Shown here: positions 4,564 through 38,966 of the stretch, piece after piece | Numbering within the stretch: position 1 is the stretch's first letter | How the letters are laid out: every line of letters starts with the position of its first letter | Source: an uncultured bacterium | Lineage (GTDB): Bacteria > Patescibacteriota > Patescibacteriia > SG8-24 > DYFX01 | Assembly (NCBI GenBank): GCA_937900255.1 | Contig: CALCDZ010000003.1 | Coordinates: 127,149-191,148, forward strand | Direction: 5' to 3' | DNA: 64,000 nucleotides | Translations under genes and position numbers: made by a program | Notes under the pieces: generated by a model | Database searches by the model: none | Told to the model about the DNA's origin: nothing | Seen by the model: the letters and a program-made list of their open reading frames with translations, nothing else

Positions 4564-5010
4564 ATGCACCTTGAATCGTTCATGATCGATTTCGATCCCC
4601 AGGCTCCGCTGGAGCGGCTGGTCGCCGAAAGCGGTAATGACTGGGTGAGCGGCGCGATCTCCGACGTGCCGCTTGAGACGGGACTGGGGTCTGACCGGAT
4701 CGTTCAGGAGGTCGGCGTGGCCTGGTTCGATACGGAAACGCCTCTGGCGGCGGCGCTCGCCGCTTTCGCCGAGCGTGCCCGCCGGCCCGCCGGCCTGCGT
4801 CAGCTCTTCGCCTTTAATCGCCGGTATCCGGACCTCCAGCGGCGTTTTCCGGTCATCGCGCTCGGGTCTTTCTGGCAGCGCCGCGAAGGGTACCCGAAAT
4901 ATTATCCTTGGCTCGAAGGCAGGACAATACGACAATGCCTGGACCTGCTGCAGGTGACGGGTACGGGCGCTTTCGGCGCCTGCTGGAGATACCTCACGCT
5001 CGCCGCTTGA
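4564..5010 (+). CDS. hypothetical protein (148 aa; track ORF 4405-5010 starts inside the promoter region)
   Basis: ATG 4564 is preceded by an SD and the promoter above. No recognisable motif. Confidence 0.5.
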   Translation: MHLESFMIDFDPQAPLERLVAESGNDWVSGAISDVPLETGLGSDRIVQEVGVAWFDTETPLAAALAAFAERARRPAGLRQLFAFNRRYPDLQRRFPVIALGSFWQRREGYPKYYPWLEGRTIRQCLDLLQVTGTGAFGACWRYLTLAA

Positions 5011-23594: not shown

Positions 23595-23639
23595 GGACGA
23601 CATCCAGGTCTGGCCGCCTTGGCGAAAGCCGAGAGAAAA

Positions 23640-23671
23640 CTCCCCGAAAGGGGAGTTTTCGTTTACGCTGA
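23640..23671 (+). repeat. 32-nt direct repeat copy 2 (CTCCCCGAAAGGGGAGTTTTCGTTTACGCTGA) in the 5' leader of the NERD gene
   Basis: See copy 1. It lies between promoter 23565-23594 and ATG 23703. Confidence 0.7.
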
Positions 23672-23702
23672 GGGCGCGGATGTCGTCTCTGAAAGGAATG
23701 AT

Positions 23703-24377
23703 ATGGCCTATCTCAAGTGGCTGGAGGATGGATACGTAAAGAAACAATCAGGTAAGTACTTGTGGTGGGGCATGGGTGTCGCTGCGATCGGATACCTAGC
23801 CTATCGTGGTTTCATCGATGAACGACTTCCGTCGCCTCTGATCATTTTAGGAGGCACTGGCATTTTGATCGCGTACGTACATTTGCACGTGAAGTTCTTC
23901 AAGAAGCACTTGAAATTTGAAAAGGGTTATGAAGGTGAGATGGCCGCCGCAAGGGAGCTGTGCAAACTGCCGGAGGGCTATCTGGCTTTCCACGACGTAC
24001 AACTTCCCGGCAGGCACGGTAATATCGATTTTGTCGTAGTGACGCCTTCTCACGTGTACGCCGTAGAGGTCAAAAACATGAAGCGCCACATCCGCAAGTC
24101 CGACATCAGCCAGGCGAAACGGAACGCCCTTTTCTTGAATAGATGGCTTCAGCAAGAAGTGGGCCAGTACATCATCGTGCAGCCCGTGCTGGCATCCGTG
24201 AACAAGAAAATCCAGTTTCACAGCGGCATGACCGACGAGACCGGAGTGGTCCGCCTCGAGGATCTCAACGCATTCATCCTGGACAAATCAGGACGGTCGT
24301 ACGGCACCGGCCTGATGGTCCAGGTCGTACGGGTCCTGAAGAGATTTACGCCCGTTCACGAAGTCGTCTGCGACTAG
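23703..24377 (+). CDS. NERD (nuclease-related domain) protein with N-terminal TM region
   Basis: NERD signature FHDVQLPGRHGNIDFVVVTPSHVYAVEVKNMK. SD AAAGGA 6 nt before ATG 23703; the track ORF starts upstream at a TTG. Local GC content is clearly lower than the surroundings. Confidence 0.75.
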   Translation: MAYLKWLEDGYVKKQSGKYLWWGMGVAAIGYLAYRGFIDERLPSPLIILGGTGILIAYVHLHVKFFKKHLKFEKGYEGEMAAARELCKLPEGYLAFHDVQLPGRHGNIDFVVVTPSHVYAVEVKNMKRHIRKSDISQAKRNALFLNRWLQQEVGQYIIVQPVLASVNKKIQFHSGMTDETGVVRLEDLNAFILDKSGRSYGTGLMVQVVRVLKRFTPVHEVVCD

Positions 24378-24396
24378 GCTAAAAACAGCCAGAAAT

Positions 24397-24418
24397 GACC
24401 TCAAAACGAGGTCTTTTT
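24397..24418 (+). terminator. intrinsic terminator (GACCTC-AAAAC-GAGGTC + T5)
   Basis: Perfect 6-bp stem + TTTTT after the NERD stop. Confidence 0.7.
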
Positions 24419-24521
24419 GTACTCAGCCGAACCCTTGAAAAGAAAGGGTTTACGTGTTCGCCCTAAAGCGAGTAAAATCGGGTACACTGAATGAGGGAGT
24501 CTATCCCAAAAACTAATATAT

Positions 24522-25439
24522 ATGGCGATTCCCGACTTCCAGACCGTAATGTTACCGATTCTTCAGTTTGCAGGCGATGGGGAGGAGCATTCAATTCGAG
24601 AAGCAATTGAAAACATTTCTGAAAAATTTAATCTTAACCCCGAAGAAAGAAGCTTCGTATTGCCGAGCGGTCATCAATTCATTATCGACAATCGCGTAGG
24701 TTGGGCACGGACGTACATGAAAAAGGCTGGGCTACTGGATACCCCGAGGCGCGGTTTCTTCCGGATTACCGATACTGGAAAAAAAGTGCTCAGTGAAAAG
24801 CCTGAGGCAATTGACGTAAATTTTCTTCAACAATTTCCATCGTTCAATGAGTTCCGAACCTTTAGACGTGAAGAAGAGGGGGTACCGACTCGAGAGGGTT
24901 CAGAAGGATCTTTGACACAGACGCCCCAAGAACAGATTGAAGACGGCTACCAAAAGATTCGGGCAAATCTGGCGCAAGAGATATTAACTGCCATTAAAGG
25001 ATGCTCGCCCAGGTTTTTCGAGAAACTCGTTGTCGAGTTGCTGCTCGGGATGGGCTATGGAGGAGACATTGAAGGTGCGGGTAGGGCCATTGGTCAGAGT
25101 GGAGACGGTGGCATCGATGGTGTGATTAAAGAGGATAAGCTTGGTCTCGATGAAATTTACATTCAAGCAAAACGCTGGGAGGCATCAGTAGGCGCTCCGC
25201 TTGTAAGGAACTTTGTTGGTAGTTTGGCGGGCAGAAATGCGAACAAAGGTGTATTGATTACAACGTCGGATTTTACAAGAGATGCCCTAGACTATGTTAA
25301 GACAGTTTCGCATAAAGTGATACTGATAAACGGAGAAACCCTCGTCCGTTTGATGATTGATCATGGTATTGGTGTATCGAGAGTTGCGAACTATGAAGTG
25401 AAGAAAATTGACGCCGAATACTTCTCTGAAACAGAATAG
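24522..25439 (+). CDS. mrr: Mrr-family type IV restriction endonuclease (Mrr_N winged helix + Mrr_cat nuclease)
   Basis: N-terminal Mrr_N-like region and a C-terminal PD-(D/E)xK-type block (GGIDGVIKED.. DEIYIQAKRW). Markedly AT-rich compared with the flanks. Confidence 0.85.
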   Translation: MAIPDFQTVMLPILQFAGDGEEHSIREAIENISEKFNLNPEERSFVLPSGHQFIIDNRVGWARTYMKKAGLLDTPRRGFFRITDTGKKVLSEKPEAIDVNFLQQFPSFNEFRTFRREEEGVPTREGSEGSLTQTPQEQIEDGYQKIRANLAQEILTAIKGCSPRFFEKLVVELLLGMGYGGDIEGAGRAIGQSGDGGIDGVIKEDKLGLDEIYIQAKRWEASVGAPLVRNFVGSLAGRNANKGVLITTSDFTRDALDYVKTVSHKVILINGETLVRLMIDHGIGVSRVANYEVKKIDAEYFSETE

Positions 25440-25462: not shown

Positions 25463-28400
25463 ATGTCCACCTTCACCCACCTCCACACCCACTCCCACTA
25501 CAGCCTCCTCGAGGCCTTGCCTCAGGTCGACAAATTGGTGAAATTCGCCAAGAAACAGGGGGCGAAGGCGGTGGCGCTGACGGATAATGCCAACATGTTC
25601 GGGACGATCGAGTTCGTGCAGGAGTGCCAGAAGGCGGAGATCAAGCCGATCATCGGGTATGACGCCTACGTGGCGGTCGAGACGATCGACCTCAAGCGGC
25701 ATCGCATCGACGACAAGAACACCCGCTTGGTGCTCCTGGCCGAGAACATGGAGGGGTACAAGAACCTGATGAAGCTAGCGTCGGCGGCGTATTTGGACGG
25801 CTTCTACTATCGCCCGCGCATCGATCGCAACCTGCTGCGCCAGTACGGCAGGGGGTTGATCGCCTTGGCGGGGCCCCGCAGCGACATCGGCAAGTGGCTG
25901 ATCGACGGCGACGACGAGAAGGCTGAAGCGCGGCTGCGGGAGTATCTGGAGATCTTCGGCAAGGAGAACTTCTTCTTCGAGCTCGTCCATCAGCCGGACA
26001 GCCCCACGCAGAAGGAGGTGAACGATGCGTTCATCGCGCTCGGCAAGAAGGCCGGCGTCGGGGTGGTGGCGTCGCGGAACGTCTACTACCTGCGGCCGGA
26101 GGAATCCGAAGCGCGCAGCCTGCTCCTGTGCATCAAGGACAACCGCACGATGGAGGAGCGCGAACGGTCGGTCGCGGCCGACAACGACCTTTCGATGACC
26201 TCGCCGGAAGAGATGGAAGAGGCCTTCAAGGACGTCCCGGAGGCGCTCGAGAATAACGCGCGCATCGCGGAACGCTGCGACGTGAAGCTGGAGCTCGGCA
26301 AGTGGAACTTCCCGGTCTATGAGATCCCCGACGGCCTCACGGCCATCGAGTACCTGCGCAAGATCGCCTTCGAGCGCCTACCGCTCCTTTTGAAGCGCGA
26401 GCTGGATCAGAAGGAGATCGACCGCCTGAACTACGAGATCGACATCATCGAGAAGAAAGGCTACGCCACCTACTTCCTGGTGGTGGCCGACTACGGTTCA
26501 TGGGCCCGCAAGCAGGGGATCGTGCTGACCACGCGTGGATCGGCCGCCGGTTCTCTCATGGCGTACGCCATCGGCATCGTCACCGTGAACCCGCTCGACT
26601 ACAACCTGCCGTTCGAGCGCTTCCTGAACCCGCAGCGCCCGTCCGCGCCCGATGTCGATATGGACTTCGCCGACCATCGACGCGGCGAGGTGTTGGAATA
26701 CGTGAAAGGCAAGTACGGCGCCGACCACGTGGCCCAGATCTGCACCTTCGGGACGATGGCGGCGCGCGCTTCGATGCGCGACGTCGGCCGCGCGCTCGGG
26801 TACCCGGTGGCCTTCTGCGACCAGATCGCCAAGACCATCCCGTTCGGCCAGCAGGGCTTCGCCATGACGATCGACCGCGCGCTCGCCGAGACGCCCGACT
26901 TCAAGCGCCGTTACGACACCGAACCGGAAGTGAAGCGTCTCGTGGACTTGGCCAAGCAGATCGAAGGCAACGCGCGGCACTGCTCGGTGCACGCCGCCGG
27001 CGTCGTGATCTCCGACAAGCCGCTCGTGGAGTACACGCCGCTCCAGAGGGAAGCAGGCGGCGAGGCCATCATCACGCAGTACGAGATGCACGCGGTGGAA
27101 GACGCCGGCGTCCTCAAGATGGACTTCCTCGGCATCCGCAACCTTTCGATCCTGGAATACGCCATCGATCTCGTGAAGCGCACCAAGGGCGTCGAGGTCG
27201 ACTTGGTGCACATGGATTTGAAGGACAAGAAGACCTTCGAGATGCTGGCCGCCGGCAAGACGATGGGCATCTTCCAGCTGGGTGGCTCCGACGGCATGAC
27301 GCGCTTCCTGATGCAGCTCAAGCCGACTGTCATCGAGGACATCATGGCCATGGTGGCGCTCTACCGCCCGGGCCCGATCGACATCATCCCGGAGTTCATC
27401 AGGCGCAAGCAGAACCCGAAGCTGATCACCTACCTGGACCCGCGGATGAAGGACTACCTGCAGATGTCCTACGGCATGCTGGTGTACCAGGACGACGTGC
27501 TCATGACCGCCATCAACCTGGCGGGCTACGACTGGCTGGAAGCCGACAAGTTCCGCAAGGCGATGGGCAAGAAGATCCCGGAGGAGATGGCCAAGCAGGA
27601 GATCAAGTTCAAGGAAGGCTGCATCGCCCACGGGCTGACGCAAGCCAAGACCTTGGAGCTTTGGGAGCTGATCAAGCCGTTCGCGGCCTACGGCTTCAAC
27701 AAGGCGCATGCCGCTTCCTACGGCATCGTGGCCTACCAGACGGCCTACATGAAGGCCAACTTCCCGGCCGAATACATGACGGCCCTCATGACCGCCGAAT
27801 CCGGCGACCTCGACACCGTGGCCGAGGCGGTGAAGGAGTGCGAAGCGCTCGGCATCGCCGTGCTGCCGCCTGACGCAAACTCGAGCGAAGCCGGCTTCAC
27901 GTACATCGATGACCACCGGATCCGCTTCGGTCTCAGCACCATCAAGGGGCTGGGCATCGACACCGTGAACGCCATCATCGAGGAACGCAAGGCGGGCGGT
28001 TCCTTCAAGGACTTGTCCGATTTCGCGCGGCGTATCCCCGGCAAGGCCTTCAACAAGAAGTCGCTCGAATGCTTGGCGAAGTCCGGCGCGCTCGACGCCT
28101 TCGAGGAGCGCAACCGCATCGTCGAGAACATCGACGTGCTCACCACCTACAACAAGAACATGATCAAGGAGCGCGACAACGGGCAGTCCTCGCTCTTCGC
28201 GTTCGTGGTGCCGGACGGGACCGAACTCGTGCCGATGCTGGGGCTGCGCAACGTGCCGCCGGCCACCCGCAAGCAGAAGCTGGCGTGGGAGAAGGAACTG
28301 CTCGGGCTCTACGTCAGCGCGCATCCGTTCGAGGAGGTCGCCAAGGAGTTCGGCGACCTGCTCATGCCCATCAGCAAGGCGCTCGCGCTTCCGGAGAAGT

Positions 28401-28975
28401 CGCCGATCCGCGTGGGCGGCACCGTCACTTCCGTGAAGCAGATCGTCACCAAGAAGAGCGGAGAGCCGATGCTCTTCGCCACCATCACCGACCAGAGCGG
28501 TTCGGCCGAATGCCTGGTCTTCCCGAGCGTCTTCAAGGAGAACGGCGCCGCCTGGGTCGAAGGCGCCAACCTGGCGGTGACGGGGCGGCTTTCGCGCAAG
28601 GACGACGAACCGAAGTTCCTGGCCGACCGCGGCTGGTCGCTGACCGACGAGACGATCCCGGTCTACAAGAAGCACTTCAAGGGCGAGGCGATCAGTTCCG
28701 GCGAGATGCTGGACATGCACCGCCCCAAGGCGCGGGCTACCCAGGGCGAAGTGCGCATCAGCCTGCCTTCGAAGCTGCCGCCGTCAGCCGTCTCCGCCCT
28801 CAAGGCCGTATTGGCCAAGTTCCCCGGCAAGGCGCTCGTGACGCTCGACGTCCGCGCCGAAGGCGGTTTCCAGCGCGTCGAGACGTCGTTCCTGATCGAC
28901 CCGAGTCCTGACGCCGTGGCCGCCATCGAGAAGCAGGTCGGTATGGGCAACGTGAAGCTCTACCCCCCAGCCTGA
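25463..28975 (+). CDS. dnaE: DNA polymerase III alpha subunit
   Basis: 1170 aa. PHP domain (HLHTHSHYSLL), polymerase core, OB-fold C-terminus. Confidence 0.95.
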   Translation: MSTFTHLHTHSHYSLLEALPQVDKLVKFAKKQGAKAVALTDNANMFGTIEFVQECQKAEIKPIIGYDAYVAVETIDLKRHRIDDKNTRLVLLAENMEGYKNLMKLASAAYLDGFYYRPRIDRNLLRQYGRGLIALAGPRSDIGKWLIDGDDEKAEARLREYLEIFGKENFFFELVHQPDSPTQKEVNDAFIALGKKAGVGVVASRNVYYLRPEESEARSLLLCIKDNRTMEERERSVAADNDLSMTSPEEMEEAFKDVPEALENNARIAERCDVKLELGKWNFPVYEIPDGLTAIEYLRKIAFERLPLLLKRELDQKEIDRLNYEIDIIEKKGYATYFLVVADYGSWARKQGIVLTTRGSAAGSLMAYAIGIVTVNPLDYNLPFERFLNPQRPSAPDVDMDFADHRRGEVLEYVKGKYGADHVAQICTFGTMAARASMRDVGRALGYPVAFCDQIAKTIPFGQQGFAMTIDRALAETPDFKRRYDTEPEVKRLVDLAKQIEGNARHCSVHAAGVVISDKPLVEYTPLQREAGGEAIITQYEMHAVEDAGVLKMDFLGIRNLSILEYAIDLVKRTKGVEVDLVHMDLKDKKTFEMLAAGKTMGIFQLGGSDGMTRFLMQLKPTVIEDIMAMVALYRPGPIDIIPEFIRRKQNPKLITYLDPRMKDYLQMSYGMLVYQDDVLMTAINLAGYDWLEADKFRKAMGKKIPEEMAKQEIKFKEGCIAHGLTQAKTLELWELIKPFAAYGFNKAHAASYGIVAYQTAYMKANFPAEYMTALMTAESGDLDTVAEAVKECEALGIAVLPPDANSSEAGFTYIDDHRIRFGLSTIKGLGIDTVNAIIEERKAGGSFKDLSDFARRIPGKAFNKKSLECLAKSGALDAFEERNRIVENIDVLTTYNKNMIKERDNGQSSLFAFVVPDGTELVPMLGLRNVPPATRKQKLAWEKELLGLYVSAHPFEEVAKEFGDLLMPISKALALPEKSPIRVGGTVTSVKQIVTKKSGEPMLFATITDQSGSAECLVFPSVFKENGAAWVEGANLAVTGRLSRKDDEPKFLADRGWSLTDETIPVYKKHFKGEAISSGEMLDMHRPKARATQGEVRISLPSKLPPSAVSALKAVLAKFPGKALVTLDVRAEGGFQRVETSFLIDPSPDAVAAIEKQVGMGNVKLYPPA

Positions 28976-29039
28976 AGGCCGCCCGCTTTTTCGGCCCTGC
29001 CGCGCGTGGTATAAAGAGAAGGAATCACTCCACCACCCT

Positions 29040-31307
29040 ATGGCCACCGCTGCACGACCGATGGAAATAACGCCCGAAGACTCCGGAAGGTTCGGCGCGG
29101 TCGGAGTCGCCGAATTGAGGAGATTGGCCGACCGTTATACCGAGGCCGAGCGCGCGCGCGCCGTGCATCCCGATGATGCGGACGCCGAACTCGGGCTGGA
29201 AATCGCCGCCCTGGAGCAGCAGCTGTTTTTCGTCGAGCACGACAACGCCGGCGCGTTCAAGACCAAGAAGCTCGGTCGTCGCATCCAGGAGCTGTTCAAG
29301 CCCGGGCCCGACGGCAGGCCTGCGCTCGGCTTCGACGAGAAAGGCGACCTGCAGGTGGCGGAATCGCAAGCCGAACGCCGCTTCCTCTTGGTTAACATGG
29401 GCGAACTCGACCGCTTCAACAAGGAGGGCGGAGGCCATGCGGCAGGGGACGCGGCGCTGACGGAGACCGTGCAGGCGATCGAACGCGTCGTCGCCGAAGC
29501 GGTCAAGGGCAAGGAGGGCGCGGAAGCCGAATACGACATCTACCGCTTCGACGGCAACACCTTCGCCGTGGACTTGGCATCGATGCCGCTCGCGGAGTTC
29601 GCCAAGCTGGTCGGCGAAATGCAGAAGGCCGAACCGAAGCCGGAGATGCCGGGCGTGACCGACCCAGCGCCGCTCACCGTCCGAGGCATCGATTTCCGTG
29701 ACGCGGTCGGACTGGTCAATCACCTCCAGGCGGAACTTCCGGCCGGAGTCAGGATCGACACCTCCGACGAAGCCGCACGCGAGATCTTCGGCATGCTGCG
29801 CCGCGCGTCCGATTGGGACCTCGAGGCCGCCAAGTTCGAACAACGCGCGCTTCGCATGAAGAGGAAGCTGTCCGACGTCGATGCCGAGGCGTTTTTCGAC
29901 AACTACATCAAGAAGTCCTTCCAGGACACGGAACTCTCTTCGTTCGATGCCTTCAGGCGCGCGGCGCAGGCGCCGGATTTCCAGGCGACCGTCGATCGTC
30001 TCGCCATCGGCCATGCCGAGAAGCGCTTCGCCGACGGCAGGAACGTCGAAGACCAGATCCAGGAGATGATTTCCGCGCGCGCGCGCGAACGCGGCATCCC
30101 GATGCCTGGGATTGAGGCCCCTTCTGACGGCCCTCATGCTCAGGCCGAGCCGTTCTCGCACGGCAAGCGGCTGCTCGCGGAGAAGGCCGAGGCCGCCGTC
30201 GCGGCGAAATCTGCCGCCGCGCGCGCGGGCGAAGGACCTGAGGCACGGCGCTTGGCGCTCCTGGCCAGCAAGGCCGAGCTGGAATCCCAGATCGAATCGG
30301 CCCGGCGCGACGCCGGTACCGGCCTCCTGAACCGCGGCATGCACTACGAGAATCTCGAACGCGCGCTCGAACAGGGCCGCGATGTCGCCGTCGTGTTCGT
30401 CGACATGGGCTTCCTGAAGTACTTCGACCAGATGGGCGGTTCGGACGTCGGCGACGCCGCCTTGGACGTGGCCGCGCGCATGATGGAGCAGGCGCTGTCG
30501 GAATCGGGCGTCAAAGGAGAAGTCTACCGCTACGGCGGCGACGAGTTCACTCTCCAGGTGGAAGGCGGCGCGGAAGCGGCTTCCAAGGCCATGCGCGCGC
30601 TCGAAGACCTCCGCAAGGCTTCCGAACCGATCCCTCGCACGGCCAAATCCCGGGCGGAATACGCGCCGACGCGCCTTTCCTTCAATTATGGCCTCTCGGA
30701 TGGCGCCATGCTCGACGAGCTCTACCGTGCCTCCAAGGCCTCCGAAGCGGCTCCGGAAGGGGAGCAGGTCGACGCTGAAAAAGTCCTGAACGCCAAGGCG
30801 GAGCTGATGACCAAGGCGGCGGACGTCGGTATCGAGTACAACAAGGCCTACTCCCGCTTCATGCTCCTGATCGAGGAGCTGCGGAATCCGGATTCGACGA
30901 GTCCCGAGCGGAAGCGGCAGCTCGATTCGTTGATCAGCTTCTCGAACAAGGCGCTGTTCGCCGAACTCGGGGGCGCAGATCACCTCCGCACCCTTGCGGC
31001 CGATCTTTCGCTTGAAGGCGATGCCTTGGAGGAGGCCGTGCTCGATTACGTGGTCGAAAAGGTCAACGAGACCCGCGCGCGGGAGAAGGGGCAACGGGAA
31101 CTGGTGGATGTCCTCCTGGCCGCGCAGACCAAGGTCTCGTTCTTCAAGGCGCGCGTCGAAAGCTTGGAGGCGGAGAACGCGAAGCTCAAGGATGAGAACC
31201 GCGGGCAGGTGCTGAGCCTTGCACGGGCACGCGAACAGAAGGACGCGGCGGAAAGGGAAAAACAGGAGATCATCGACGCGCGGAACCTCATCGGCCGCGC
31301 CGCTTGA
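29040..31307 (+). CDS. cytoplasmic tandem GGDEF-domain protein: first domain degenerate (RFDGNTF in place of GGDEF), second canonical (RYGGDEF); C-terminal coiled coil
   Basis: 755 aa. Two nucleotidyl-cyclase-like modules with the characteristic LVNMGELDRFN / FVDMGFLKYFD metal-site segments. Confidence 0.8.
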   Translation: MATAARPMEITPEDSGRFGAVGVAELRRLADRYTEAERARAVHPDDADAELGLEIAALEQQLFFVEHDNAGAFKTKKLGRRIQELFKPGPDGRPALGFDEKGDLQVAESQAERRFLLVNMGELDRFNKEGGGHAAGDAALTETVQAIERVVAEAVKGKEGAEAEYDIYRFDGNTFAVDLASMPLAEFAKLVGEMQKAEPKPEMPGVTDPAPLTVRGIDFRDAVGLVNHLQAELPAGVRIDTSDEAAREIFGMLRRASDWDLEAAKFEQRALRMKRKLSDVDAEAFFDNYIKKSFQDTELSSFDAFRRAAQAPDFQATVDRLAIGHAEKRFADGRNVEDQIQEMISARARERGIPMPGIEAPSDGPHAQAEPFSHGKRLLAEKAEAAVAAKSAAARAGEGPEARRLALLASKAELESQIESARRDAGTGLLNRGMHYENLERALEQGRDVAVVFVDMGFLKYFDQMGGSDVGDAALDVAARMMEQALSESGVKGEVYRYGGDEFTLQVEGGAEAASKAMRALEDLRKASEPIPRTAKSRAEYAPTRLSFNYGLSDGAMLDELYRASKASEAAPEGEQVDAEKVLNAKAELMTKAADVGIEYNKAYSRFMLLIEELRNPDSTSPERKRQLDSLISFSNKALFAELGGADHLRTLAADLSLEGDALEEAVLDYVVEKVNETRAREKGQRELVDVLLAAQTKVSFFKARVESLEAENAKLKDENRGQVLSLARAREQKDAAEREKQEIIDARNLIGRAA

Positions 31308-31346
31308 TGGCTCGCGGCACGGAAGCGTGCTATACTTGGTGCAGCT

Positions 31347-32909
31347 ATGTCGCCTAGGAGGAAAAAGGCGGAGAGCGGGGAGCCGGAGACGTCCGACCAG
31401 GACGCGACCGGATCCGTGCCGAAGCCGAAAAAAACACGAGCGACGCGGAAGAAGGTCCCGGCGAAAGACGCCGAGGCCTCGATTGACGTCCAGGTTCCAG
31501 CCCCGACCGTTCCGACGCCGACCTTCGGCGCCCCGATCCCTCCACGGCAGCCGGTGAACATCCCGATCAAGCCCATCCCGCAACAGATCGTCGTGCCGCC
31601 GAGGATCGTCATCGAGCCGGAAGTGAACATCGCCGAGGAGATCGAGGATCTCTGGAGGCCAGAAACCCGAAAGGCCGACCTGACGGCTCCGCCTTCGGCG
31701 CTTTTGCAGCGCAAGAAGATCCCGCAAGAGGAAGTCGAGGACGTCCCCGAGCGACCGGAGGGGGCCGAAAAGCGCGGCGATGAACGCGAAGCGCTGCGCG
31801 GCACCATCCGGACCGGGCTGTACCGAAAGATCGCCATCGGTTTCGGGTTGCCGGCGGTCATCGTCGGCGCCCTCGTCCTTTACGTCCTCCTGGCTGGCGC
31901 GACCGTCACCGTCTATCCGCAGCAAGCGGAAATCAGGTCCGAACAGGACCTGACGGTTTCGGCTTCGCCTCGGCAAGGCGAAGTATCGGGCCAGGTCGCG
32001 GAAGTCACGGTGAGCGGTTCGCGTACCCAGATTCCGGCCGATTCGACCCGTACCGACGGCGTTTCCGGCGGGGAAGTGACGATCATCAACCAGACCGGAA
32101 ACGACCAGGTCCTGATTCCCACCACCCGTCTTTTGACTTCGGATGGGACGCTGTTCCGGATCAAATCCAGGGTGAACGTGCCGGCGCATGGGCGGATCAA
32201 GACGCGCGTCTACGCCGACAAGCCTGGAGCCTCCGGCGATATCGGGCCGTCGGCGTTCACGATCCCCGGGCTTTCGGCCGATCTTCAGAAGTCGATCACT
32301 GCCCAGAGCGAGTCGCCCATGACGGGCGGTGTCGTCGCGAGCGGCGTGCTTTCGCAATCGGATATCGACAAGGCCGAAGCGGACTTGCGGGAGGAACTCC
32401 TCGGCCAGGCCAAGGATGAGCTGGCCGCTTCGCTCGATCCGAAATGGACCGGCCAGGCGTACGTGGCCGAGACCATGAATCGGGCGGTCAGCGCGGCGGT
32501 CGGGGAGACGTCCGACGGCGTCACGGTGCGCCTGACGCTGCGCGTCCGCGCGGCCGCGTTCGACCGGATGAAGGCGCTGGCATTCGCGGCCGACGGCCTG
32601 AAGCGCGGCTTGACCTCCGAACGGGAATTGCTCGGGACGGACGCCGAACACGCGGAATTCAGCCTGTCTTCGGCCGACCCCAAGGACGGCAGCGCCGGCC
32701 TGCACGTCCTCCTGAAGGGCAAATCGCAAGTCTCCCTGAACGGCCCGGCCTTCGACCCCGGCAAGCTCAAAGGGAAGAGCCTTTCCGCCGTCCAGGAATA
32801 TTTCTCCGGCATCGAAGGCGTCCAGAAAGTCGACGTCGCCTTCCGCCCCTTCTGGATCAAGCGCATGCCCGACCTGCCAGACCATATCAGGATCGTCTTC
32901 CACAAGTAG
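31347..32909 (+). CDS. hypothetical single-pass membrane protein with basic disordered N-terminus and large extracytoplasmic domain
   Basis: 520 aa. TM helix IAIGFGLPAVIVGALVLYVLLAG. Lies immediately downstream of the GGDEF gene. Confidence 0.6.
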   Translation: MSPRRKKAESGEPETSDQDATGSVPKPKKTRATRKKVPAKDAEASIDVQVPAPTVPTPTFGAPIPPRQPVNIPIKPIPQQIVVPPRIVIEPEVNIAEEIEDLWRPETRKADLTAPPSALLQRKKIPQEEVEDVPERPEGAEKRGDEREALRGTIRTGLYRKIAIGFGLPAVIVGALVLYVLLAGATVTVYPQQAEIRSEQDLTVSASPRQGEVSGQVAEVTVSGSRTQIPADSTRTDGVSGGEVTIINQTGNDQVLIPTTRLLTSDGTLFRIKSRVNVPAHGRIKTRVYADKPGASGDIGPSAFTIPGLSADLQKSITAQSESPMTGGVVASGVLSQSDIDKAEADLREELLGQAKDELAASLDPKWTGQAYVAETMNRAVSAAVGETSDGVTVRLTLRVRAAAFDRMKALAFAADGLKRGLTSERELLGTDAEHAEFSLSSADPKDGSAGLHVLLKGKSQVSLNGPAFDPGKLKGKSLSAVQEYFSGIEGVQKVDVAFRPFWIKRMPDLPDHIRIVFHK

Positions 32910-32915
32910 GCGACG

Positions 32916-32937
32916 GCCCCGCTCCGGCGGGGCTTTT
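32916..32937 (+). terminator. intrinsic terminator (GCCCCGC-TCCG-GCGGGGC + T4)
   Basis: 7-bp perfect stem 6 nt after the stop. Confidence 0.65.
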
Positions 32938-32984
32938 CGATTCCGCCTGCATTTGCTACAGTCCCTCCGTAAAAAGAAACTCCT

Positions 32985-34817
32985 ATGGCCGCCAAGAAAC
33001 CCTCCGAATACGACGACGTGGACCGGATGCGCCACTCGGCCGCCCATCTGCTGGCAGCCGCCGTCATGAAGATGTTCCCGGACGCCAAGCTGGGCGTCGG
33101 CCCCGTCATCGAGAACGGCTTCTATTACGACATGCAGCTGCCGCGTCCGCTCACGACGGACGATTTCGCGGAACTGGAAAAGACCATCTCGCGCCTGAAG
33201 GCGGAAAACATCGACTTTCGGCGCGAGGAGATGCCGATCGATCAGGCTATCGAGTTCTTCAAGTCCCGCGGACAGGATTTCAAGGTCGAACTGCTGACGG
33301 ACCTCAAGACGCGCGGCACGACGGCCATGAAGGAGGAGGAATCGCAGGATGTCGCTCCCGGAGCCGCCGCTTCGGTCTACTGGACCGGGGATTTCGTCGA
33401 TCTCTGCCGCGGCCCGCACGTGAAATCCACGGGCGACGTCGGCGCGGTCCGGATCAAGAGCGTGGCCGGCGCCTATTGGCGCGGCAAGTCGGAAAACGCC
33501 CAGATGCAGCGCGTCTACGGCTGGGCCTTCCCGTCCCAGGAGGCGCTCGACGCGCACTTGAAGATGCTGGAAGAGGCGGAGAAGCGCGATCACCGCAAGC
33601 TCGGTAAGGAGCTCGGACTCTTCACGTTCTCCGATCTGGTCGGCCCGGGCCTTCCGCTCTGGACGCCGCGCGGCACCCTGATCCGCGAACTGCTGAACGG
33701 TTATGTCGGAGAGCTCCGCAAGGCGCACGGCTACCAGCGCGTGACCATCCCGCACATCACCAAGAAGGACCTGTACGAGACCTCCGGCCACTGGGCGAAA
33801 TACGCCGAGGACCTCTTCAAGATCGAGACGCGCGAGGGACATCTCTTCGCCATGAAGCCGATGAACTGCCCGCACCATGCGCAGATCTTCGCCGCCGAAC
33901 CACGCTCGTACCGCGACATGCCGGTACGGTATGCCGAGACGACCATGGTGTACCGCGACGAGCAGTCCGGCGAGCTCTCCGGGCTGTCGCGCGTGCTGTC
34001 CATCACGCAGGACGACGCGCACGTCTTCTGCCGCATGAGCCAGGTGCGCGATGAGGCCGAAAAGGTCTGGTCGATCATCGAGACGTTCTACCGGACGTTC
34101 GGCTTCGAGTTGAGCCTGCGCCTGTCGCGCCGCGACCCCCTCCACCCCGAAAAATACCTCGGCGACCCGGGCGACTGGGAGCGGGCAGAATCCTCCTTGC
34201 GCGAGATCCTCGACGCGCACGGAGTCGAATGGATCGATGGCCCGGGCGAAGCTGCTTTCTACGGGCCGAAGATCGACTTCATGGCCAAGGACTCCATCGG
34301 CCGCATCTGGCAGGTCGCCACCATCCAGCTTGACTTCAACCAGCCGCGCAGCTTCGGCCTCTCCTGCACCAACGAGAAAGGCGAGAAGGAACCGATCCTG
34401 ATGATCCACTGCGCCGTGATGGGATCGATCGAGCGTTTCATGAGCGTCATCCTCGAGCACTTCGCCGGCGTCTTCCCGACGTGGCTCGCGCCCGTCCAGG
34501 TGGCGCTGCTCCCGGTGGGGGAACGGCATCGCGATGCCTGCCGCGCCTTGCGGGACAAGATGGAAACGCTCGGCGTGCGCGCCTGGCTGGACGCTTCGGA
34601 TGAATCGGTCGGCAAGAAGGTCCGCGGCGCCGAAAAGATGAAGATTCCCTACGGCCTCGTGCTCGGCGACAAGGAGATTCCGCCCGAAGGCGCCTGGGAG
34701 GACGGCGTCAAGCTGGCCGTCCGAGTGCATGGCACGAAGGATGCGGTGGAGATGACGCTGGGAGAGTTCCTCGGACGCGTCCGCCGGGAAGACGAGGAGC
34801 GGAGGCTCAGGGACTGA
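32985..34817 (+). CDS. thrS: threonine--tRNA ligase
   Basis: 610 aa. Second additional (editing) domain, class II core motifs, anticodon-binding domain. Confidence 0.9.
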   Translation: MAAKKPSEYDDVDRMRHSAAHLLAAAVMKMFPDAKLGVGPVIENGFYYDMQLPRPLTTDDFAELEKTISRLKAENIDFRREEMPIDQAIEFFKSRGQDFKVELLTDLKTRGTTAMKEEESQDVAPGAAASVYWTGDFVDLCRGPHVKSTGDVGAVRIKSVAGAYWRGKSENAQMQRVYGWAFPSQEALDAHLKMLEEAEKRDHRKLGKELGLFTFSDLVGPGLPLWTPRGTLIRELLNGYVGELRKAHGYQRVTIPHITKKDLYETSGHWAKYAEDLFKIETREGHLFAMKPMNCPHHAQIFAAEPRSYRDMPVRYAETTMVYRDEQSGELSGLSRVLSITQDDAHVFCRMSQVRDEAEKVWSIIETFYRTFGFELSLRLSRRDPLHPEKYLGDPGDWERAESSLREILDAHGVEWIDGPGEAAFYGPKIDFMAKDSIGRIWQVATIQLDFNQPRSFGLSCTNEKGEKEPILMIHCAVMGSIERFMSVILEHFAGVFPTWLAPVQVALLPVGERHRDACRALRDKMETLGVRAWLDASDESVGKKVRGAEKMKIPYGLVLGDKEIPPEGAWEDGVKLAVRVHGTKDAVEMTLGEFLGRVRREDEERRLRD

Positions 34818-34838
34818 ACCACGGGCGGAATCTCTCCC

Positions 34839-35738
34839 ATGCTTCCGAAGATCGTCGTCGTCGTCGGTCCGACGGCCTCGGGCAAGACGTCTTTCGCCGT
34901 CCGCTTGGCCAAGAAGATCGGCGGAGAGATCGTCTCGGCCGATTCGCGCCTGCTGTACCGCGGCATGGACATCGGCACGGCCAAGCCGGGCTTGGAGGAA
35001 CGGGGCGGCATCCCGCATCATCTGATCGATATCGTCCGTCCGTCCGGCATGCTGACCTTGTCCGGCTATCAGCGCCGCGCGTTCAGGGCGATCGGCGGCA
35101 TCCTGCGGCGCGGCAAGACGCCGATTCTGGTCGGCGGGACCGGACTGTACGTGCGTGCCGTCGTCGAGAATCTTAGGATCCCGGAAGTCCCGCCCGATCC
35201 GAAGTACCGCGCGTATCTGGAAAAGAAAGGCGCGGCGTGGATCCTTGCGAGGCTGGCGAAACTCGATCCGGAATACGCCGCACGCATCGGTCCGAATCCG
35301 CGTTACGCTTCCCGGGCCCTTGAGGTCATCCGGGCGACGGGAAAGCCTTTCGGGCGCCAACAAGGAGCGGGCAAGCGGAAGTTCGACGCCCTCCTGATCG
35401 GCCTCTATCCGGGCAAACCGGAACTGGAGCGGAGGATCGGTCTTCGCGTACGGCAGATGGCGGAGTCCGGTCTCCTGGACGAGGCGCGGTCATTGCATCG
35501 GCGTTATGGCGAAAAAAAGTCCGGCGCGCTTTGGACCGCTATCGGCTACCGGGAACTTCTCGGCGTCCTGAGGGGGGAGAAGGATCTCGAAGAGGCCTTG
35601 AAAGAGATCGTGACGTCGACTCGGCAGTACGCCAAGCGGCAAATGACCTGGTTCCGGGGGGTGAAGGGCATCGAGTGGTTCCCGCGCCCGGATGCGGCGC
35701 TCCGAAAGTCCATAATTTGGCTGAAACAAGGCAAATAG
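34839..35738 (+). CDS. miaA: tRNA dimethylallyltransferase
   Basis: P-loop VVVGPTASGKT at the N-terminus, 299 aa. Confidence 0.9.
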   Translation: MLPKIVVVVGPTASGKTSFAVRLAKKIGGEIVSADSRLLYRGMDIGTAKPGLEERGGIPHHLIDIVRPSGMLTLSGYQRRAFRAIGGILRRGKTPILVGGTGLYVRAVVENLRIPEVPPDPKYRAYLEKKGAAWILARLAKLDPEYAARIGPNPRYASRALEVIRATGKPFGRQQGAGKRKFDALLIGLYPGKPELERRIGLRVRQMAESGLLDEARSLHRRYGEKKSGALWTAIGYRELLGVLRGEKDLEEALKEIVTSTRQYAKRQMTWFRGVKGIEWFPRPDAALRKSIIWLKQGK

Positions 35739-35806
35739 AGGCGTTAGGCCTTCTCAAAAGGCTGATTTTCTGCTATGCTGAGCACAGAATTATTTTAATG
35801 CCCCGT

Positions 35807-35974
35807 ATGGAGCCCACCATGGGTTACTGCGTGAAGTGCAAGGACAAGCGCGAAATCAAGGATGCACAGGAGGTCCAGATGCCGGCGAAGGGCGGCAAGA
35901 CCCGACCGGCGCTCAAAGGCGTCTGTCCGGCCTGCGGGACCGGCATCTTCAAGATCCTGCCCTCCAAAGCCTGA
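35807..35974 (+). CDS. small zinc-ribbon protein (two CxxC pairs, 55 aa)
   Basis: MEPTMGYCVKCKDK..GVCPACGTG. Flanked by the miaA terminator hairpin and terminator 35979-36010. Confidence 0.5.
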   Translation: MEPTMGYCVKCKDKREIKDAQEVQMPAKGGKTRPALKGVCPACGTGIFKILPSKA

Positions 35975-35978
35975 ACGA

Positions 35979-36010
35979 TAAAAACCTCCCTGGCAGACGG
36001 GGAGGTTTTT
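35979..36010. terminator. bidirectional intrinsic terminator (A5-ACCTCCC-TGGCAGACG-GGGAGGT-T4)
   Basis: 7-bp stem with an A-run before and a T-run after. Confidence 0.6.
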
Positions 36011-36025
36011 ATGCACACGGAAGTC

Positions 36026-36054
36026 TTGCCGGTCCCCGTGCCTGTTGCTAGAAT
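36026..36054 (+). promoter_or_regulatory. strong sigma70-like promoter TTGCCG-17 nt-TAGAAT, with no protein-coding gene downstream on this strand
   Basis: Near-consensus hexamers with optimal 17-nt spacing. The next plus-strand ORFs are only antisense artefacts. Confidence 0.6.
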
Positions 36055-36060
36055 CCGGTA

Positions 36061-36222
36061 GTCCGATAAGGGGCTGGAGGGATTCTTTCGTCGAACGGCT
36101 ACTTCTCACGCCGCAGGACGATGGATTTCTCAGAGGGACGGGCGCGCCTCGTCGCGGTCGTCCATGACCCTCCGGCCCCTTATCGGAAAACGAAACCCCG
36201 CTCATCGAGAGCGGGGTTTCGT
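36061..36222 (+). ncRNA. candidate small RNA (about 125-160 nt). Its 5' and 3' ends form a 19-bp helix (CCGATAAGGGGCTGGAGGG / CCCTCCGGCCCCTTATCGG, one G-U), followed by hairpin AACCCCGCTC-ATCGA-GAGCGGGGTT. Class not assigned
   Basis: Seen directly: promoter 36026-36054, then the 36063-36081 / 36168-36186 perfect long-range pairing enclosing about 86 nt with an internal helix GGACGA/TCGTCC, then a terminator hairpin (36194-36218). The G-U pair (T36075-G36174) is only compatible with plus-strand RNA. Confidence 0.45.
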
Positions 36223-36687
36223 TCATCCTTTCAGCCAGCGTTTGAAGCGGCTCAACAGTCCGGATTTTTGGGCAGGCGCCTGTTGCCGCGCCTTTTCCGC
36301 CTCTCCGGACTCCTTCCAGCCGCGTTCAAGCTGCGCATCATGGAAGGCGTCCATTTTTTTCGTGTCCTCGGCACGATTCAGCTCAGCCCGCGCCTTCAGA
36401 AGCTCCTTGCGCTCCTTGGCTGCCTGCGCCGCCATCTGCGCTTCGATCCGGGGTTTTTCGATGGCTTGCGCCTCGCCTTCCGTGATTTCCTCGAGGTCCG
36501 ATTCGTCCAGGAGTTCCGCCCCTTCGTTGGCGGCTTGGACGGCTTCGATCAATCCGTCTCGGACGGACGCTTCCGCGACATCATCATCCGATACGATCTT
36601 GAGCCGGTCCTTGGAGTGCGCACCCTTGCCCTTGGCCACCTCGTCTCCGATCGGAAGCTTTTCCGCCGCGTTTCCTCGCATAGTCAT
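36223..36687 (-). CDS. hypothetical acidic coiled-coil protein (154 aa)
   Basis: ORF with stop overlapping the gatB region (4-nt gap). Terminator hairpin 36194-36218 downstream with U-run on the minus strand. Confidence 0.5.
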   Translation of the reverse strand: MTMRGNAAEKLPIGDEVAKGKGAHSKDRLKIVSDDDVAEASVRDGLIEAVQAANEGAELLDESDLEEITEGEAQAIEKPRIEAQMAAQAAKERKELLKARAELNRAEDTKKMDAFHDAQLERGWKESGEAEKARQQAPAQKSGLLSRFKRWLKG

Positions 36688-36691
36688 GTCG

Positions 36692-38227
36692 TTAGATGTT
36701 ACCGAGCTTGGATTCCAGGATCTCGCGCACCAGTTCCGGTTTGGCCTTGCCTTTGGTCTCCTTCATGACTTGGCCGACCAGGAACATGATGGCGGGGAGC
36801 TTGCCGGCGCGATAATCGCCGACGACCTTCCCGTTCGCCGTGATGACGTTGTCGCAGGCCAGCTCCAGGTCGCCCAGGTCGGAGACTTGTTCCAGTCCGC
36901 GCTCCGCGACGATCTGCGATGGGTCCTGTCCGGATTCGAGCATCACGCCCAGGATCTCCTGCGCCGAAGTGCTGTTGATCTTGCCGAGATGCAGGAGCGT
37001 CAGGAACTCGGCGAAATCCTCGGGCGTCACCTTGACGGTGCGGATGTCGATCGACATCGAAGCCATGAGACCGAACATCTTGGAGAGCAGCCAGCCGGAG
37101 ACCAGCTTGGCGAACTTCGCCTTGGAGGCGTCCCAGGACTCCGTCTCTCCGACCGACCCGAGCCATTCGCGGAGCTCGGACATGACCTGTTCGACCCAAT
37201 CGGCCAGGTAAGGATTGTCGACGATCTGTTTCGCGTCGGGGGCGGTGAAGGCATACTCTTCCCGGAAGCGCTGCCGCTTGGCTTCGGGCAGTTCCGGCAT
37301 CCGTCGCCGGGCATCGCTTTCCGCTTCCGCCAGATCGAGCGGGGGCAGGTCCGGTTCCGGGAAGTAGCGGTAGTCGGCCATGCCTTCCTTCGTGCGCTGA
37401 TGGACGGTGATCTGCCGGTCGTCGTCCCACCCGCGGGTCGTGACCTGCGCGGGCGGTGTGCCGGCGTTCCAAAGGGCGGTCTGCCGGACGATCTCATACT
37501 CCAACGCGCGCTCGACGGCCTTGAAGGAGTTCAGGTTCTTGATTTCGGTCTTGGGGTTGAAGCGCAGGACCGATTCCTTCTCGATGGCCGGGTCGTCGAT
37601 CACCTGACGCAGGCTGACGTTGGCGTCGCAACGCAGGTGCCCCTTCTCCATCTCGGCGTCCGAGACGCCCAAGGTGCGCATGATCAGCCGGAGCTCGTGC
37701 AGGAAGGCCTTGGCTTCGGAAGGGGAGGCGAAGTCCGGTTCGGTCACGATTTCGGCGAGCGGAGTGCCGGCCCGGTTGAAATCCACGAGCGACGACTTGC
37801 CGTCGGCCGAGTGCTGGAGCTTGGCGGCATCCTCCTCAAGATGCAGCCGGGTGATGCCGATCGAGAAGACCTTGCGTTCGCCTTCCTTCGCGTAGGGGTT
37901 TTCGAGCGTGATGCGCCCGTCGACGCCGACCGGCTTGTCGAACTGGGAGATCTGGTAGCCCTTTGGCAGGTCCGGGTAGAAATAGTTCTTCCGGTCGAAC
38001 TTGGAGCTCTTCGTGATGCGGCAGCCGATGGCCAGGGAGGCCAGGACGCCGAACTCGACCGCCCGGCGGTTCACGACCGGCAGGGTGCCGGGGTGCCCCA
38101 TGCAGATCGGGCAGATGGCGGTGTTCGGCGGGGCGTCTTCGGCCCGGTTATCGCACGAACAGAACATCTTGGAGGCGGTTTTGAGCTGGACGTGGATTTC
38201 CAGGCCGATGACGGGTTCCAGGGTCAT
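36692..38227 (-). CDS. gatB: Asp-tRNA(Asn)/Glu-tRNA(Gln) amidotransferase subunit B
   Basis: 511 aa. The N-terminal 4-Cys cluster motif FCSCDN..CPICMGHPGTLP is present. Confidence 0.9.
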   Translation of the reverse strand: MTLEPVIGLEIHVQLKTASKMFCSCDNRAEDAPPNTAICPICMGHPGTLPVVNRRAVEFGVLASLAIGCRITKSSKFDRKNYFYPDLPKGYQISQFDKPVGVDGRITLENPYAKEGERKVFSIGITRLHLEEDAAKLQHSADGKSSLVDFNRAGTPLAEIVTEPDFASPSEAKAFLHELRLIMRTLGVSDAEMEKGHLRCDANVSLRQVIDDPAIEKESVLRFNPKTEIKNLNSFKAVERALEYEIVRQTALWNAGTPPAQVTTRGWDDDRQITVHQRTKEGMADYRYFPEPDLPPLDLAEAESDARRRMPELPEAKRQRFREEYAFTAPDAKQIVDNPYLADWVEQVMSELREWLGSVGETESWDASKAKFAKLVSGWLLSKMFGLMASMSIDIRTVKVTPEDFAEFLTLLHLGKINSTSAQEILGVMLESGQDPSQIVAERGLEQVSDLGDLELACDNVITANGKVVGDYRAGKLPAIMFLVGQVMKETKGKAKPELVREILESKLGNI

Positions 38228-38303
38228 ATCATGCCTATCCTAGCAGGACTTCCCCAATAAAAAAAGCCCATCCTGCTGGGGATGCGACCTGAATCCAGGC
38301 CGC

Positions 38304-38966
38304 CTAGACCGCCAGCGTCTTGCGGACCTCCGTCCAGACCAGTTCGTGGATCTCGTCGATCGAAAGCAGGCGTCCGTCCACGACGCATTCGACGAGCGCG
38401 AAGTTCGGGAAGCTGCGGGCCAGTTCAAGGTAGGCGGCTTCGGCGGCGCGCTGGTGTTCCAGGTTCTCGTGCTGGTCCTTCTCGTTGCCGCGCTTGTCGA
38501 TGAGCGTCATCGTGACTTCGGAAGGGACGTGCAGGATGACGTTCAGGTCCGGGCGCGGGATGCCGAACAAGCCGTGCTCAAGATCGTCGTTCCATCGGAA
38601 GAATTCCGCGCGCGCTTCAGGGTCAAGGATCTGCGCCCCCTGATGGCCCATGTTCGAGGCGACGTAGCGGTTCGCGACCACATGCGCGCCGCGTTCAAGA
38701 GGCGCCAGATCGCCCTCTTTGAACGAGGCCCAACGATCGATGGCGTACAGCATCGACGCTTGGCGGGCGGGTACTTCGGTAGCGGTGCCGTAGACGCCTT
38801 CCAGATAGCTCTTCACGACCCGTCCGGTCGGCGTCTCGTAACGGGGGTAGGAAAGCGTGCCGACGGCGTGGCCTTCGCGCTCCAAACGCGCGACCAGGCG
38901 CTTGGCCTGTTCGGTCTTGCCAGACCCGTTGGTCCCATCGATGACGATCAGTTTGCCGCGCGGCAT
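38304..38966 (-). CDS. tmk: thymidylate kinase
   Basis: P-loop IVIDGTNGSGKTEQ, DRW/ASF motif, 220 aa. Confidence 0.85.
   Translation of the reverse strand: MPRGKLIVIDGTNGSGKTEQAKRLVARLEREGHAVGTLSYPRYETPTGRVVKSYLEGVYGTATEVPARQASMLYAIDRWASFKEGDLAPLERGAHVVANRYVASNMGHQGAQILDPEARAEFFRWNDDLEHGLFGIPRPDLNVILHVPSEVTMTLIDKRGNEKDQHENLEHQRAAEAAYLELARSFPNFALVECVVDGRLLSIDEIHELVWTEVRKTLAV

Follow-up and report, generated by a model that had tools for sequence, protein, structure and literature searches.

A stretch of 64,000 nucleotides (nt) of patescibacterial DNA (contig CALCDZ010000003.1), called the window below, carries at 36060-36226 on its + strand what is, with high probability, a real structured non-coding RNA gene with a predicted product of about 160 nt. 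The RNA very probably represents a previously uncatalogued family, so far confined to one lineage of the Patescibacteria (candidate phyla radiation, CPR). A sequence-only reading of the same DNA had proposed a structured non-coding RNA of about 125-160 nt without a known family at this site, and each part of that proposal open to checking has held. In the window copy, a long terminal helix (P1) encloses two hairpins (P2 and P3), with an apical loop (L2) on P2 and a joining strand (J2/3) between the hairpins:

36060-36226, + strand: predicted primary transcript, about 160-167 nt, its start placed from the -10 element and its end from the terminator
36062-36081, + strand: 5' arm of P1, the 20-base-pair (bp) terminal helix; its inner half, GGCYGNRGG, is conserved in sequence
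36168-36187, + strand: 3' arm of P1, pairing with 36062-36081
36084-36125, + strand: P2 hairpin, with lower helix UCUuUCGUC/GACGAuGGA, internal loop GAA/CAG and upper helix CGGC/GCCG
36100-36109, + strand: L2, the 10-nt apical loop UACUUCUCAC, the best-conserved unpaired segment
36126-36135, + strand: J2/3, the single strand UUUCUCAGAG, holding the second UCUCA(G) motif; (U)CUCA is found in 13 of 13 main-clade sequences
36136-36163, + strand: P3 hairpin, GGACGG-G-CGCG-CCUCGU-CGCG-G-UCGUCC, near-invariant in 10 of 13 main-clade sequences

Folding of positions 36060-36225 gave a minimum free energy of -103.8 kcal/mol (z = -11.1), and none of 200 dinucleotide shuffles was as good; without the terminator the RNA is about 125 nt long and folds at -75.7 kcal/mol (z = -6.5). 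The 19-bp terminal helix proposed from the sequence is present, with 36063-36081 and 36168-36186 paired at 19 of 19 positions, including U36075-G36174, and U36062-A36187 supplies a 20th pair. The interior of the molecule, on the other hand, had been misread. The internal helix GGACGA/TCGTCC (36116-36121/36158-36163) is complementary, yet it is paired in only 46% of cells over 13 homologues, which is the level of shuffled sequences. GACGA (36117-36121) instead pairs with UCGUC (36088-36092) in P2, and UCGUCC (36158-36163) with GGACGG (36136-36141) in P3. This pairing was consequently dropped in favour of two hairpins arranged around a three-way junction.

The genome is GC-rich (~63%), and the closest relatives of the GatB and MiaA proteins of the window belong to metagenome-assembled genomes of Patescibacteria/CPR. 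Further loci were reached by contig retrieval from MiaA relatives (54-74% identity), with the gene order confirmed by tblastn. In these relatives some 180-260 nt of gap sequence (about 690 nt in the loci L100/L101) follow the DUF5679 gene, then in some cases a small open reading frame (ORF), and finally gatB. The gap aligns well, and two blocks in it, GGCTACTTCTCACGCC and GGGACGGGCGCGCCTCGTCGCGG, are invariant; scanning metagenomes with a pattern derived from these blocks returned 7 more loci, all with the same synteny. A total of 14 further distinct homologues was found, all of them from metagenomic Patescibacteria and in the setting miaA / DUF5679 / RNA / gatB. The resulting set comprises 15 distinct sequences: 13 of a main clade, including the window, together with the divergent L100/L101 and L105. 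Flanking proteins at the RNA-bearing loci are 56-74% (MiaA; 59-74% in the main clade) and 74-87% (GatB) identical. A covariance model, R1, gives scores of 84-128 bits for the 13 main-clade sequences; it also picked up the two divergent homologues, L100/L101 (38 bits) and L105 (27.6 bits), and has no match in 38 other CPR gatB loci. At one further locus, L103 (MiaA 54%), nothing but a plain terminator of 61 nt lies between DUF5679 and gatB, and this site lacks the RNA.

Each of the 15 sequences, folded alone, adopts the same P1/P2/P3 three-way junction. The shared layout consists of a P1 of 19-23 bp, a J1/2 of 2-5 nt, a P2 in which an internal loop separates the lower helix (4-10 bp) from the upper one (GGC/GCC), a P2 loop of 9-10 nt (10 nt in 13 of 15), a J2/3 with UCUCAG, P3, and a short J3/1. 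RNAalifold on the 13 main-clade sequences predicted 33 pairs, 16 of them with compensatory changes. Over P1, upper P2 and P3 together, 94.2% of cells are paired, versus 87.1% in shuffled alignments and 36-49% when the partners are slid, and none of 500 shuffles reached the observed pairing or covariation values on any measure. P1 shows changes on both sides in 12 of 19 scored pairs, while P3, with 94.6% of cells paired, has 2 compensatory pairs. The lower part of P2 varies in length and could not be aligned by MAFFT; it was aligned by hand with N padding, so that the counts for P2 (changes on both sides in 14 of 17 pairs, up to five pair types per position) come from a register fitted to the structure. 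Independently of that hand alignment, local folds form P2 in all 15 homologues with differing lower-helix sequences. The sequence-only reading had asked for conservation in relatives with covariation, and this is what the 14 further loci provide, with compensatory changes in all three helices.

The inner half of P1 (GGCYGNRGG/CCYNCRGCC), the upper P2 helix and the loop are constant in all 15 sequences, while the outer half of P1 and lower P2 vary freely by compensation; in L100 the P1 arms have a wholly different sequence, GUGGCGGGUGGGCUGUGGG/CCCACAGCCCACCCGUCAC, and still pair. L2 reads UACUUCUCAC in 12 of 13 main-clade homologues, with the variants UCUUCUCAC in L091, UACUACUCAC in L100 and UCUUCUUAC in L105. 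P3 and the UCUCAG of J2/3 are near-invariant in the main clade and replaced in L100 and L105, P3 by longer, different hairpins. In 10 of 13 main-clade sequences the loop hairpin GGCUACUUCUCACGCC is unchanged, as compared with 59-74% identity for MiaA and an unalignable adjacent orphan ORF. Conservation of the RNA exceeds that of its neighbourhood, and L2 is a candidate seed or recognition element.

A pair of inverted arms could also belong to a DNA-level palindrome, such as a repeat of the miniature inverted-repeat transposable element (MITE) or repetitive extragenic palindromic (REP) kind, a protein-binding inverted repeat or a recombination site. The terminal arms do form a 20-bp inverted repeat, and the reverse strand also folds well (z = -9.3). 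Nevertheless, on the assigned strand G-U pairs occur about three times as often as A-C, and folding of the sense strand is more favourable than that of the antisense in 13 of 15 sequences (mean difference 4.4 kcal/mol); both asymmetries favour one strand. The arms compensate while the loops stay invariant, the opposite of what is expected for a protein-bound repeat or a transposon end, and a promoter and a terminator bracket the element exactly. The same syntenic site has been kept across deep divergence, and the block pattern has no match in the viral contigs of IMG/VR. A MITE or REP repeat was rejected because the element is single-copy in the 64 kb, occurs once per locus at one syntenic site and has covarying arms; the P1 arm sequence has one other match in the window, with 3 mismatches, and no similar element occurs among the window's other inverted repeats. 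A DNA-level role is, on balance, very improbable.

A small-protein gene deserves even less credence. The mechanical ORF list does contain a 40-amino-acid (aa) ORF with a TTG start (36045-36167, + strand) and a 143-aa ORF (35795-36226, - strand), but no ORF is conserved among the homologues, 5 of which lack any ORF of at least 20 aa, and their indels (1-5 nt) are not multiples of three and break every frame. The minus-strand ORF has no Pfam match and runs antisense through the highly conserved DUF5679 gene. Taken jointly, we give the non-RNA explanations very little weight.

Comparison with known families returned no assignment. At the gathering score, Rfam 15 has no match in the whole 64-kb window; when the cut-off was relaxed to E<=10, the region and both strands of six relatives gave only weak, terminator-driven matches (rnk_pseudo, Leu_leader, asX2, BSnc120). 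The Rfam scan called for by the sequence-only reading agrees with its failure to match the RNA to 4.5S/signal recognition particle (SRP) RNA, 6S RNA, transfer-messenger RNA (tmRNA) or ribonuclease P RNA; no transfer RNA (tRNA) or tmRNA is present in the window. Several specific identities were tried and set aside. SRP RNA (RF00169) was rejected for want of a GGAAGCAGCC-type domain IV motif in the sequence and of an Rfam match, and a retron msr-msd because no same-strand gene lies downstream, hence no reverse transcriptase there, the next gene being convergent. A 5S-like reading of the minus strand has the elements in the wrong order and no Rfam 5S match. Mimicry of a tRNA anticodon loop (Glu-CUC-like, UUCUCAC) fails because the L100 and L105 variants alter the would-be U33 or the anticodon. 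A CUUCUCA hairpin at 35747-35763, just 3' of miaA, was considered as a second copy of the loop motif and dismissed as chance, since it occurs only in the window and L089.

The signals that would start and end the transcript lie immediately outside the fold:

36011-36017, + strand: upstream box ATGCACA, 8-9 nt 5' of the -35 element, at the same position in 13 of 13 loci with the same orientation as the window
36026-36031, + strand: -35 hexamer TTGCCG, found by promoter scan; TTG is kept in 13 of 13 same-orientation loci
36046-36054, + strand: extended -10 element TGcTAGAAT (hexamer TAGAAT at 36049-36054), separated from the -35 by a 17-nt spacer
36189-36223, + strand: intrinsic terminator hairpin, with a 15-bp stem (36189-36203/36209-36223) and a 5-nt loop, beginning 1 nt after P1

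The promoter TTGCCG-17-TAGAAT (36026-36054) was found exactly where the sequence-only reading had placed it, and it counts as an extended -10 promoter because TG at 36046-36047 precedes TAGAAT. It is the sole sigma-70-like site in 35500-36800, where shuffles predict 0.2. Among the same-orientation loci, TGnTAnAnT is kept in 12 of 13 (L091 has TGgTAGTAT) and ends 7 nt before P1. In relatives the upstream box takes the form (A/G)T(G/C)CACA; it is possibly a regulator-binding site or an UP-like element. At the other end, the GC-rich hairpin noted earlier (36194-36218) is present as the 15-bp stem at 36189-36223. The terminator is shared with the convergent orf-gatB operon and therefore bidirectional. 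Within 0-18 nt of the aligned core, 15 of 15 loci have a hairpin with a U tract, which in the main clade comes directly after P1; in the relatives the hairpin is followed by U4-U6 on the RNA strand, mostly a much better U tract than that of the window.

The divergent loci show a different arrangement. In L100/L101 (RNA at 4706-4840, - strand) and L105 (4718-4858, - strand) the RNA is inverted relative to miaA and DUF5679; it lies on the gatB strand and begins 5-6 nt past the stop codon of that gene, so that an independent promoter may not be universal. In these loci the gatB transcript may include the RNA or yield it by processing at the 3' end. This arrangement, which would suit a product of the gatB 3' untranslated region (UTR), together with the terminator that the window copy shares with the convergent operon, speaks for a cis element of the gatB operon, be it a 3'-end stabiliser, a transcription-collision insulator or a 3'UTR-derived RNA. 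In 13 loci, however, a conserved promoter of its own precedes the RNA, which is convergent to gatB and so cannot belong to the gatB mRNA there. A ligand-binding orphan aptamer or a ribozyme would be a second role of this general kind, since three-way junctions with conserved joining strands are typical of aptamers and small ribozymes. Against it, no riboswitch or ribozyme family matches either strand, and there is neither an expression platform nor a downstream gene. As the sequence-only reading had held, the RNA is not a 5' leader: no locus has a same-strand gene downstream, a terminator and a convergent gene following in 13 loci and the RNA itself following a stop codon in L100, L101 and L105. 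We regard these other RNA-level roles, together, as improbable.

The neighbouring genes of the window copy are arranged as follows:

32985-34817, + strand: thrS
34839-35738, + strand: miaA
35819-35974, + strand: DUF5679 zinc-ribbon gene, 51 aa (Pfam E 1.2e-11)
about 35985-36010: terminator of the DUF5679 gene
36223-36687, - strand: orphan ORF, 154 aa, convergent to the RNA
36692-38227, - strand: gatB
38304-38966, - strand: tmk

The RNA therefore lies, as had been described, between the zinc-ribbon gene (35819-35974) and a convergent minus-strand ORF (36223-36687). The latter is rich in glutamate, lysine and alanine and follows gatB at a distance of 4 nt. Neither Pfam nor NCBIfam has a match for it, and its sole homologue among 5.8 billion proteins is an identical copy, which made it unusable for locating further loci. 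Its positional equivalents in relatives, of 133-195 aa, are unalignable and share little but a basic/aromatic C-terminal tail (LLSRFKRWLKG, WYKRLFGSKG, LLSRIKGWFGGK); L091, L097, L100/L101 and L105 lack the ORF. The DUF5679 gene is preceded by a conserved extended -10 promoter of its own and by a 5'UTR (AGAATTCTTAACG..CCGTATGGA) that is near-invariant, the two together at about 35770-35818. The genes gatB and miaA look leaderless or nearly so, with a -10-like box TGCTAGGAT/TGCTAGAGT 9 nt 5' of the gatB ATG (about 38228-38245 in the window) and, in relatives, GCTAAGGTA just 5' of the miaA ATG; no Shine-Dalgarno sequence is visible for thrS, miaA, gatB or tmk. A 2112-aa open frame at 29025-35363 (- strand), antisense to thrS and miaA, is a shadow ORF of GC-rich DNA and no gene.

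As to function, we lean tentatively, and by analogy with known regulators, towards an RNA that acts in trans as a base-pairing riboregulator with the CU-rich loop as its seed. Mechanistically, a sigma-70-type extended -10 promoter would start transcription 1-2 nt before the 5' arm of P1, and the RNA would fold into the three-way junction, with the 20-bp P1 locking its 5' and 3' ends; the intrinsic terminator 1 nt after P1 would end it at about 160 nt. P2 would then present the CU-rich loop UACUUCUCAC, with the UCUCA of J2/3 as a second seed, and both seeds would pair with purine-rich GUGAGAAG-like sites in mRNAs, typically around translation starts. The long P1 and the terminator hairpin would meanwhile shield the RNA from exonucleases. 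Base pairing fits because the invariant bases are unpaired while the helices beneath them change freely. It also fits the narrow, lineage-level distribution (0 of 38 other CPR gatB loci; absent at the L103 site), which is usual for regulatory small RNAs (sRNAs).

Several observations weigh against this proposal. No target was found: the window shows no enrichment of sites complementary to the loop, with 12 matches at <=2 mismatches versus 8.7 expected, and pairing of the loop to the starts of thrS, miaA, DUF5679, gatB and tmk is no better than that of shuffled loops in any genome. A model of anti-Shine-Dalgarno action is weakened by the fact that several neighbouring genes look leaderless or lack a Shine-Dalgarno sequence. 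At the level of transcription, L100/L101 and L105 have no convincing promoter, only weak -10-like hexamers overlapping the end of gatB, and the + strand U tract of the window's terminator (UUUCGUU) is weak. Finally, the RNA has a 20-bp end-joining helix and a P3 and inner P1 that are conserved in sequence. An end-joining helix and sequence-conserved stems are more typical of protein-bound RNAs (6S, Y, SRP) than of base-pairing sRNAs.

These last features lead to an alternative of almost the same likelihood, in which the RNA binds a protein as a stable ribonucleoprotein (RNP) or as a decoy, in the manner of 6S, Y or CsrB-type RNAs. It would be recognised through both UCUCA motifs, the stem of P3 and the inner half of P1, and the DUF5679 protein would be a candidate partner. 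Both ends are locked in a helix of 19-23 bp; P3 and inner P1 (GGCYGNRGG) are conserved in sequence and not in pairing alone; the same 5-mer recurs in two unpaired regions; and the promoter is strong and looks constitutive. A reduced genome, as in the relative CP129476.1 with its complete genome of 1.17 Mb, also speaks for protein binding. Arguing in the other direction, no model of 6S, SRP or Y RNA matches, the J1/2 of only 2-5 nt leaves no 6S-like open bubble, no gene for a Ro/TROVE protein lies in the neighbourhoods, P3 is swapped for other hairpins in L100 and L105, and so narrow a distribution is unusual for a housekeeping RNP RNA.

The case for the DUF5679 protein as partner rests on its constancy and position. 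It is always adjacent to the RNA and 84-98% identical across loci, versus 54-74% for MiaA and 74-87% for GatB, and is clearly under strong constraint. Its AlphaFold2 (AF2) model is an all-beta small zinc ribbon (pLDDT 84) that has no significant Foldseek match in the PDB (best E 0.5); the best, non-significant shape match is the nucleic-acid binder Cren7 (TM 0.53-0.58). The best match in sequence searches is a weak one to S27ae (E 0.14), and in the literature DUF5679 receives nothing relevant beyond incidental mentions in work on eukaryotic viruses. However, L103 retains the DUF5679 protein (84% identical) without the RNA at its site, so the adjacency may be mere synteny. That the RNA forms the core of a lineage-specific RNP, as a stand-in of the 6S or Y type or as a DUF5679 partner, and so founds a new class of protein-binding RNA, is rather unlikely; the protein-recognition surface of such a particle would comprise the UCUCA motifs, P3 and inner P1.

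Whichever function applies, the setting gives the RNA its interest. A large part of bacterial diversity falls within the Patescibacteria (CPR), whose genomes measure about 1 Mb and whose members are almost all uncultured; to our knowledge, almost no regulatory RNAs have been characterised in them. The RNA very likely matters to its hosts, because a promoter-bearing intergenic region of 250 nt is costly in such genomes and has nonetheless been kept down to a MiaA identity of about 56%. What we describe is a new family, with covariation in all three helices, for a group poorly covered by Rfam. It yields a covariance model for annotating the lineage, and the invariant loop UACUUCUCAC offers a handle for target or partner searches; the scope is narrow, being that of one lineage.

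Elsewhere in the window, a low-GC island (23619-25439; 0.51 vs about 0.63) lies just upstream of dnaE (25463-28975). Two ORFs lie in it, one NERD-like (23619-24377) and one resembling Mrr-type restriction endonucleases (24522-25439), as inspection of the translations by eye suggests, and the island is probably an acquired defence islet. Two long-range inverted repeats were also noted, one of 36 nt with 72% complementarity (46775-46810/47030-47065) and one of 16 nt, perfect, with arms 235 nt apart (43534-43549/43785-43800).

Among known RNAs, 6S RNA (SsrS) is likewise a structured RNA of the independently transcribed, abundant type, whose 5' and 3' ends meet in a long closing helix. Its shape, however, is that of a rod, in which a large central bubble separates the closing helix from an apical stem, whereas all 15 sequences here form a three-way junction; it measures 150-200 nt, against about 125 nt here without the terminator; and the window region and six relatives have no RF00013 match even at E<=10. 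We know of no report of 6S- or Y-type RNAs in CPR, and no paper naming both the candidate phyla radiation and 6S RNA was found. The bacterial Y RNA YrlA shares a terminal helix formed by the ends (here P1, 19-23 bp) around a module of about 100-130 nt, which is a generic feature. In contrast to YrlA, the RNA has no tRNA-like module and no Rfam match, and no rsr (Ro/TROVE) gene lies in any neighbourhood, the neighbours being thrS, miaB, miaA, DUF5679, the orphan ORF, gatB and tmk.

Two kinds of base-pairing sRNA also invite comparison. Those of the RsaE/RoxS type in Firmicutes are Hfq-independent and carry repeated pyrimidine-rich loop or linker motifs that pair with purine-rich translation starts; their motifs are CCCC/UCCC, and they consist of two or three simple hairpins and no closing helix. 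They have no sequence or model similarity to the RNA described here. The closest documented analogue is Yfr1, a trans-acting sRNA of cyanobacteria. It measures 54-69 nt and holds ACUCCUCACAC in a 16-20-nt linker between two hairpins (PMC2190773), and this ultraconserved unpaired motif pairs with and sequesters ribosome-binding regions (PMC2190773, PMC2796815). The present RNA differs in its length of about 160 nt, in displaying its motif UACUUCUCAC in the loop of a hairpin, inside a three-way junction whose closing helix has 20 bp, in lacking an Rfam match to Yfr1 and in belonging to another phylum. The two are alike in being small RNA genes of streamlined genomes with a Rho-independent terminator, and in that their most conserved feature is an unpaired CU-rich motif between helices. 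When ACUCCUCACAC of Yfr1 is set against (U)ACUUCUCAC here, 8 of 9 positions match over ACUCCUCAC, the first nine bases of the Yfr1 seed, a resemblance that would represent at most a functional analogy and not homology.

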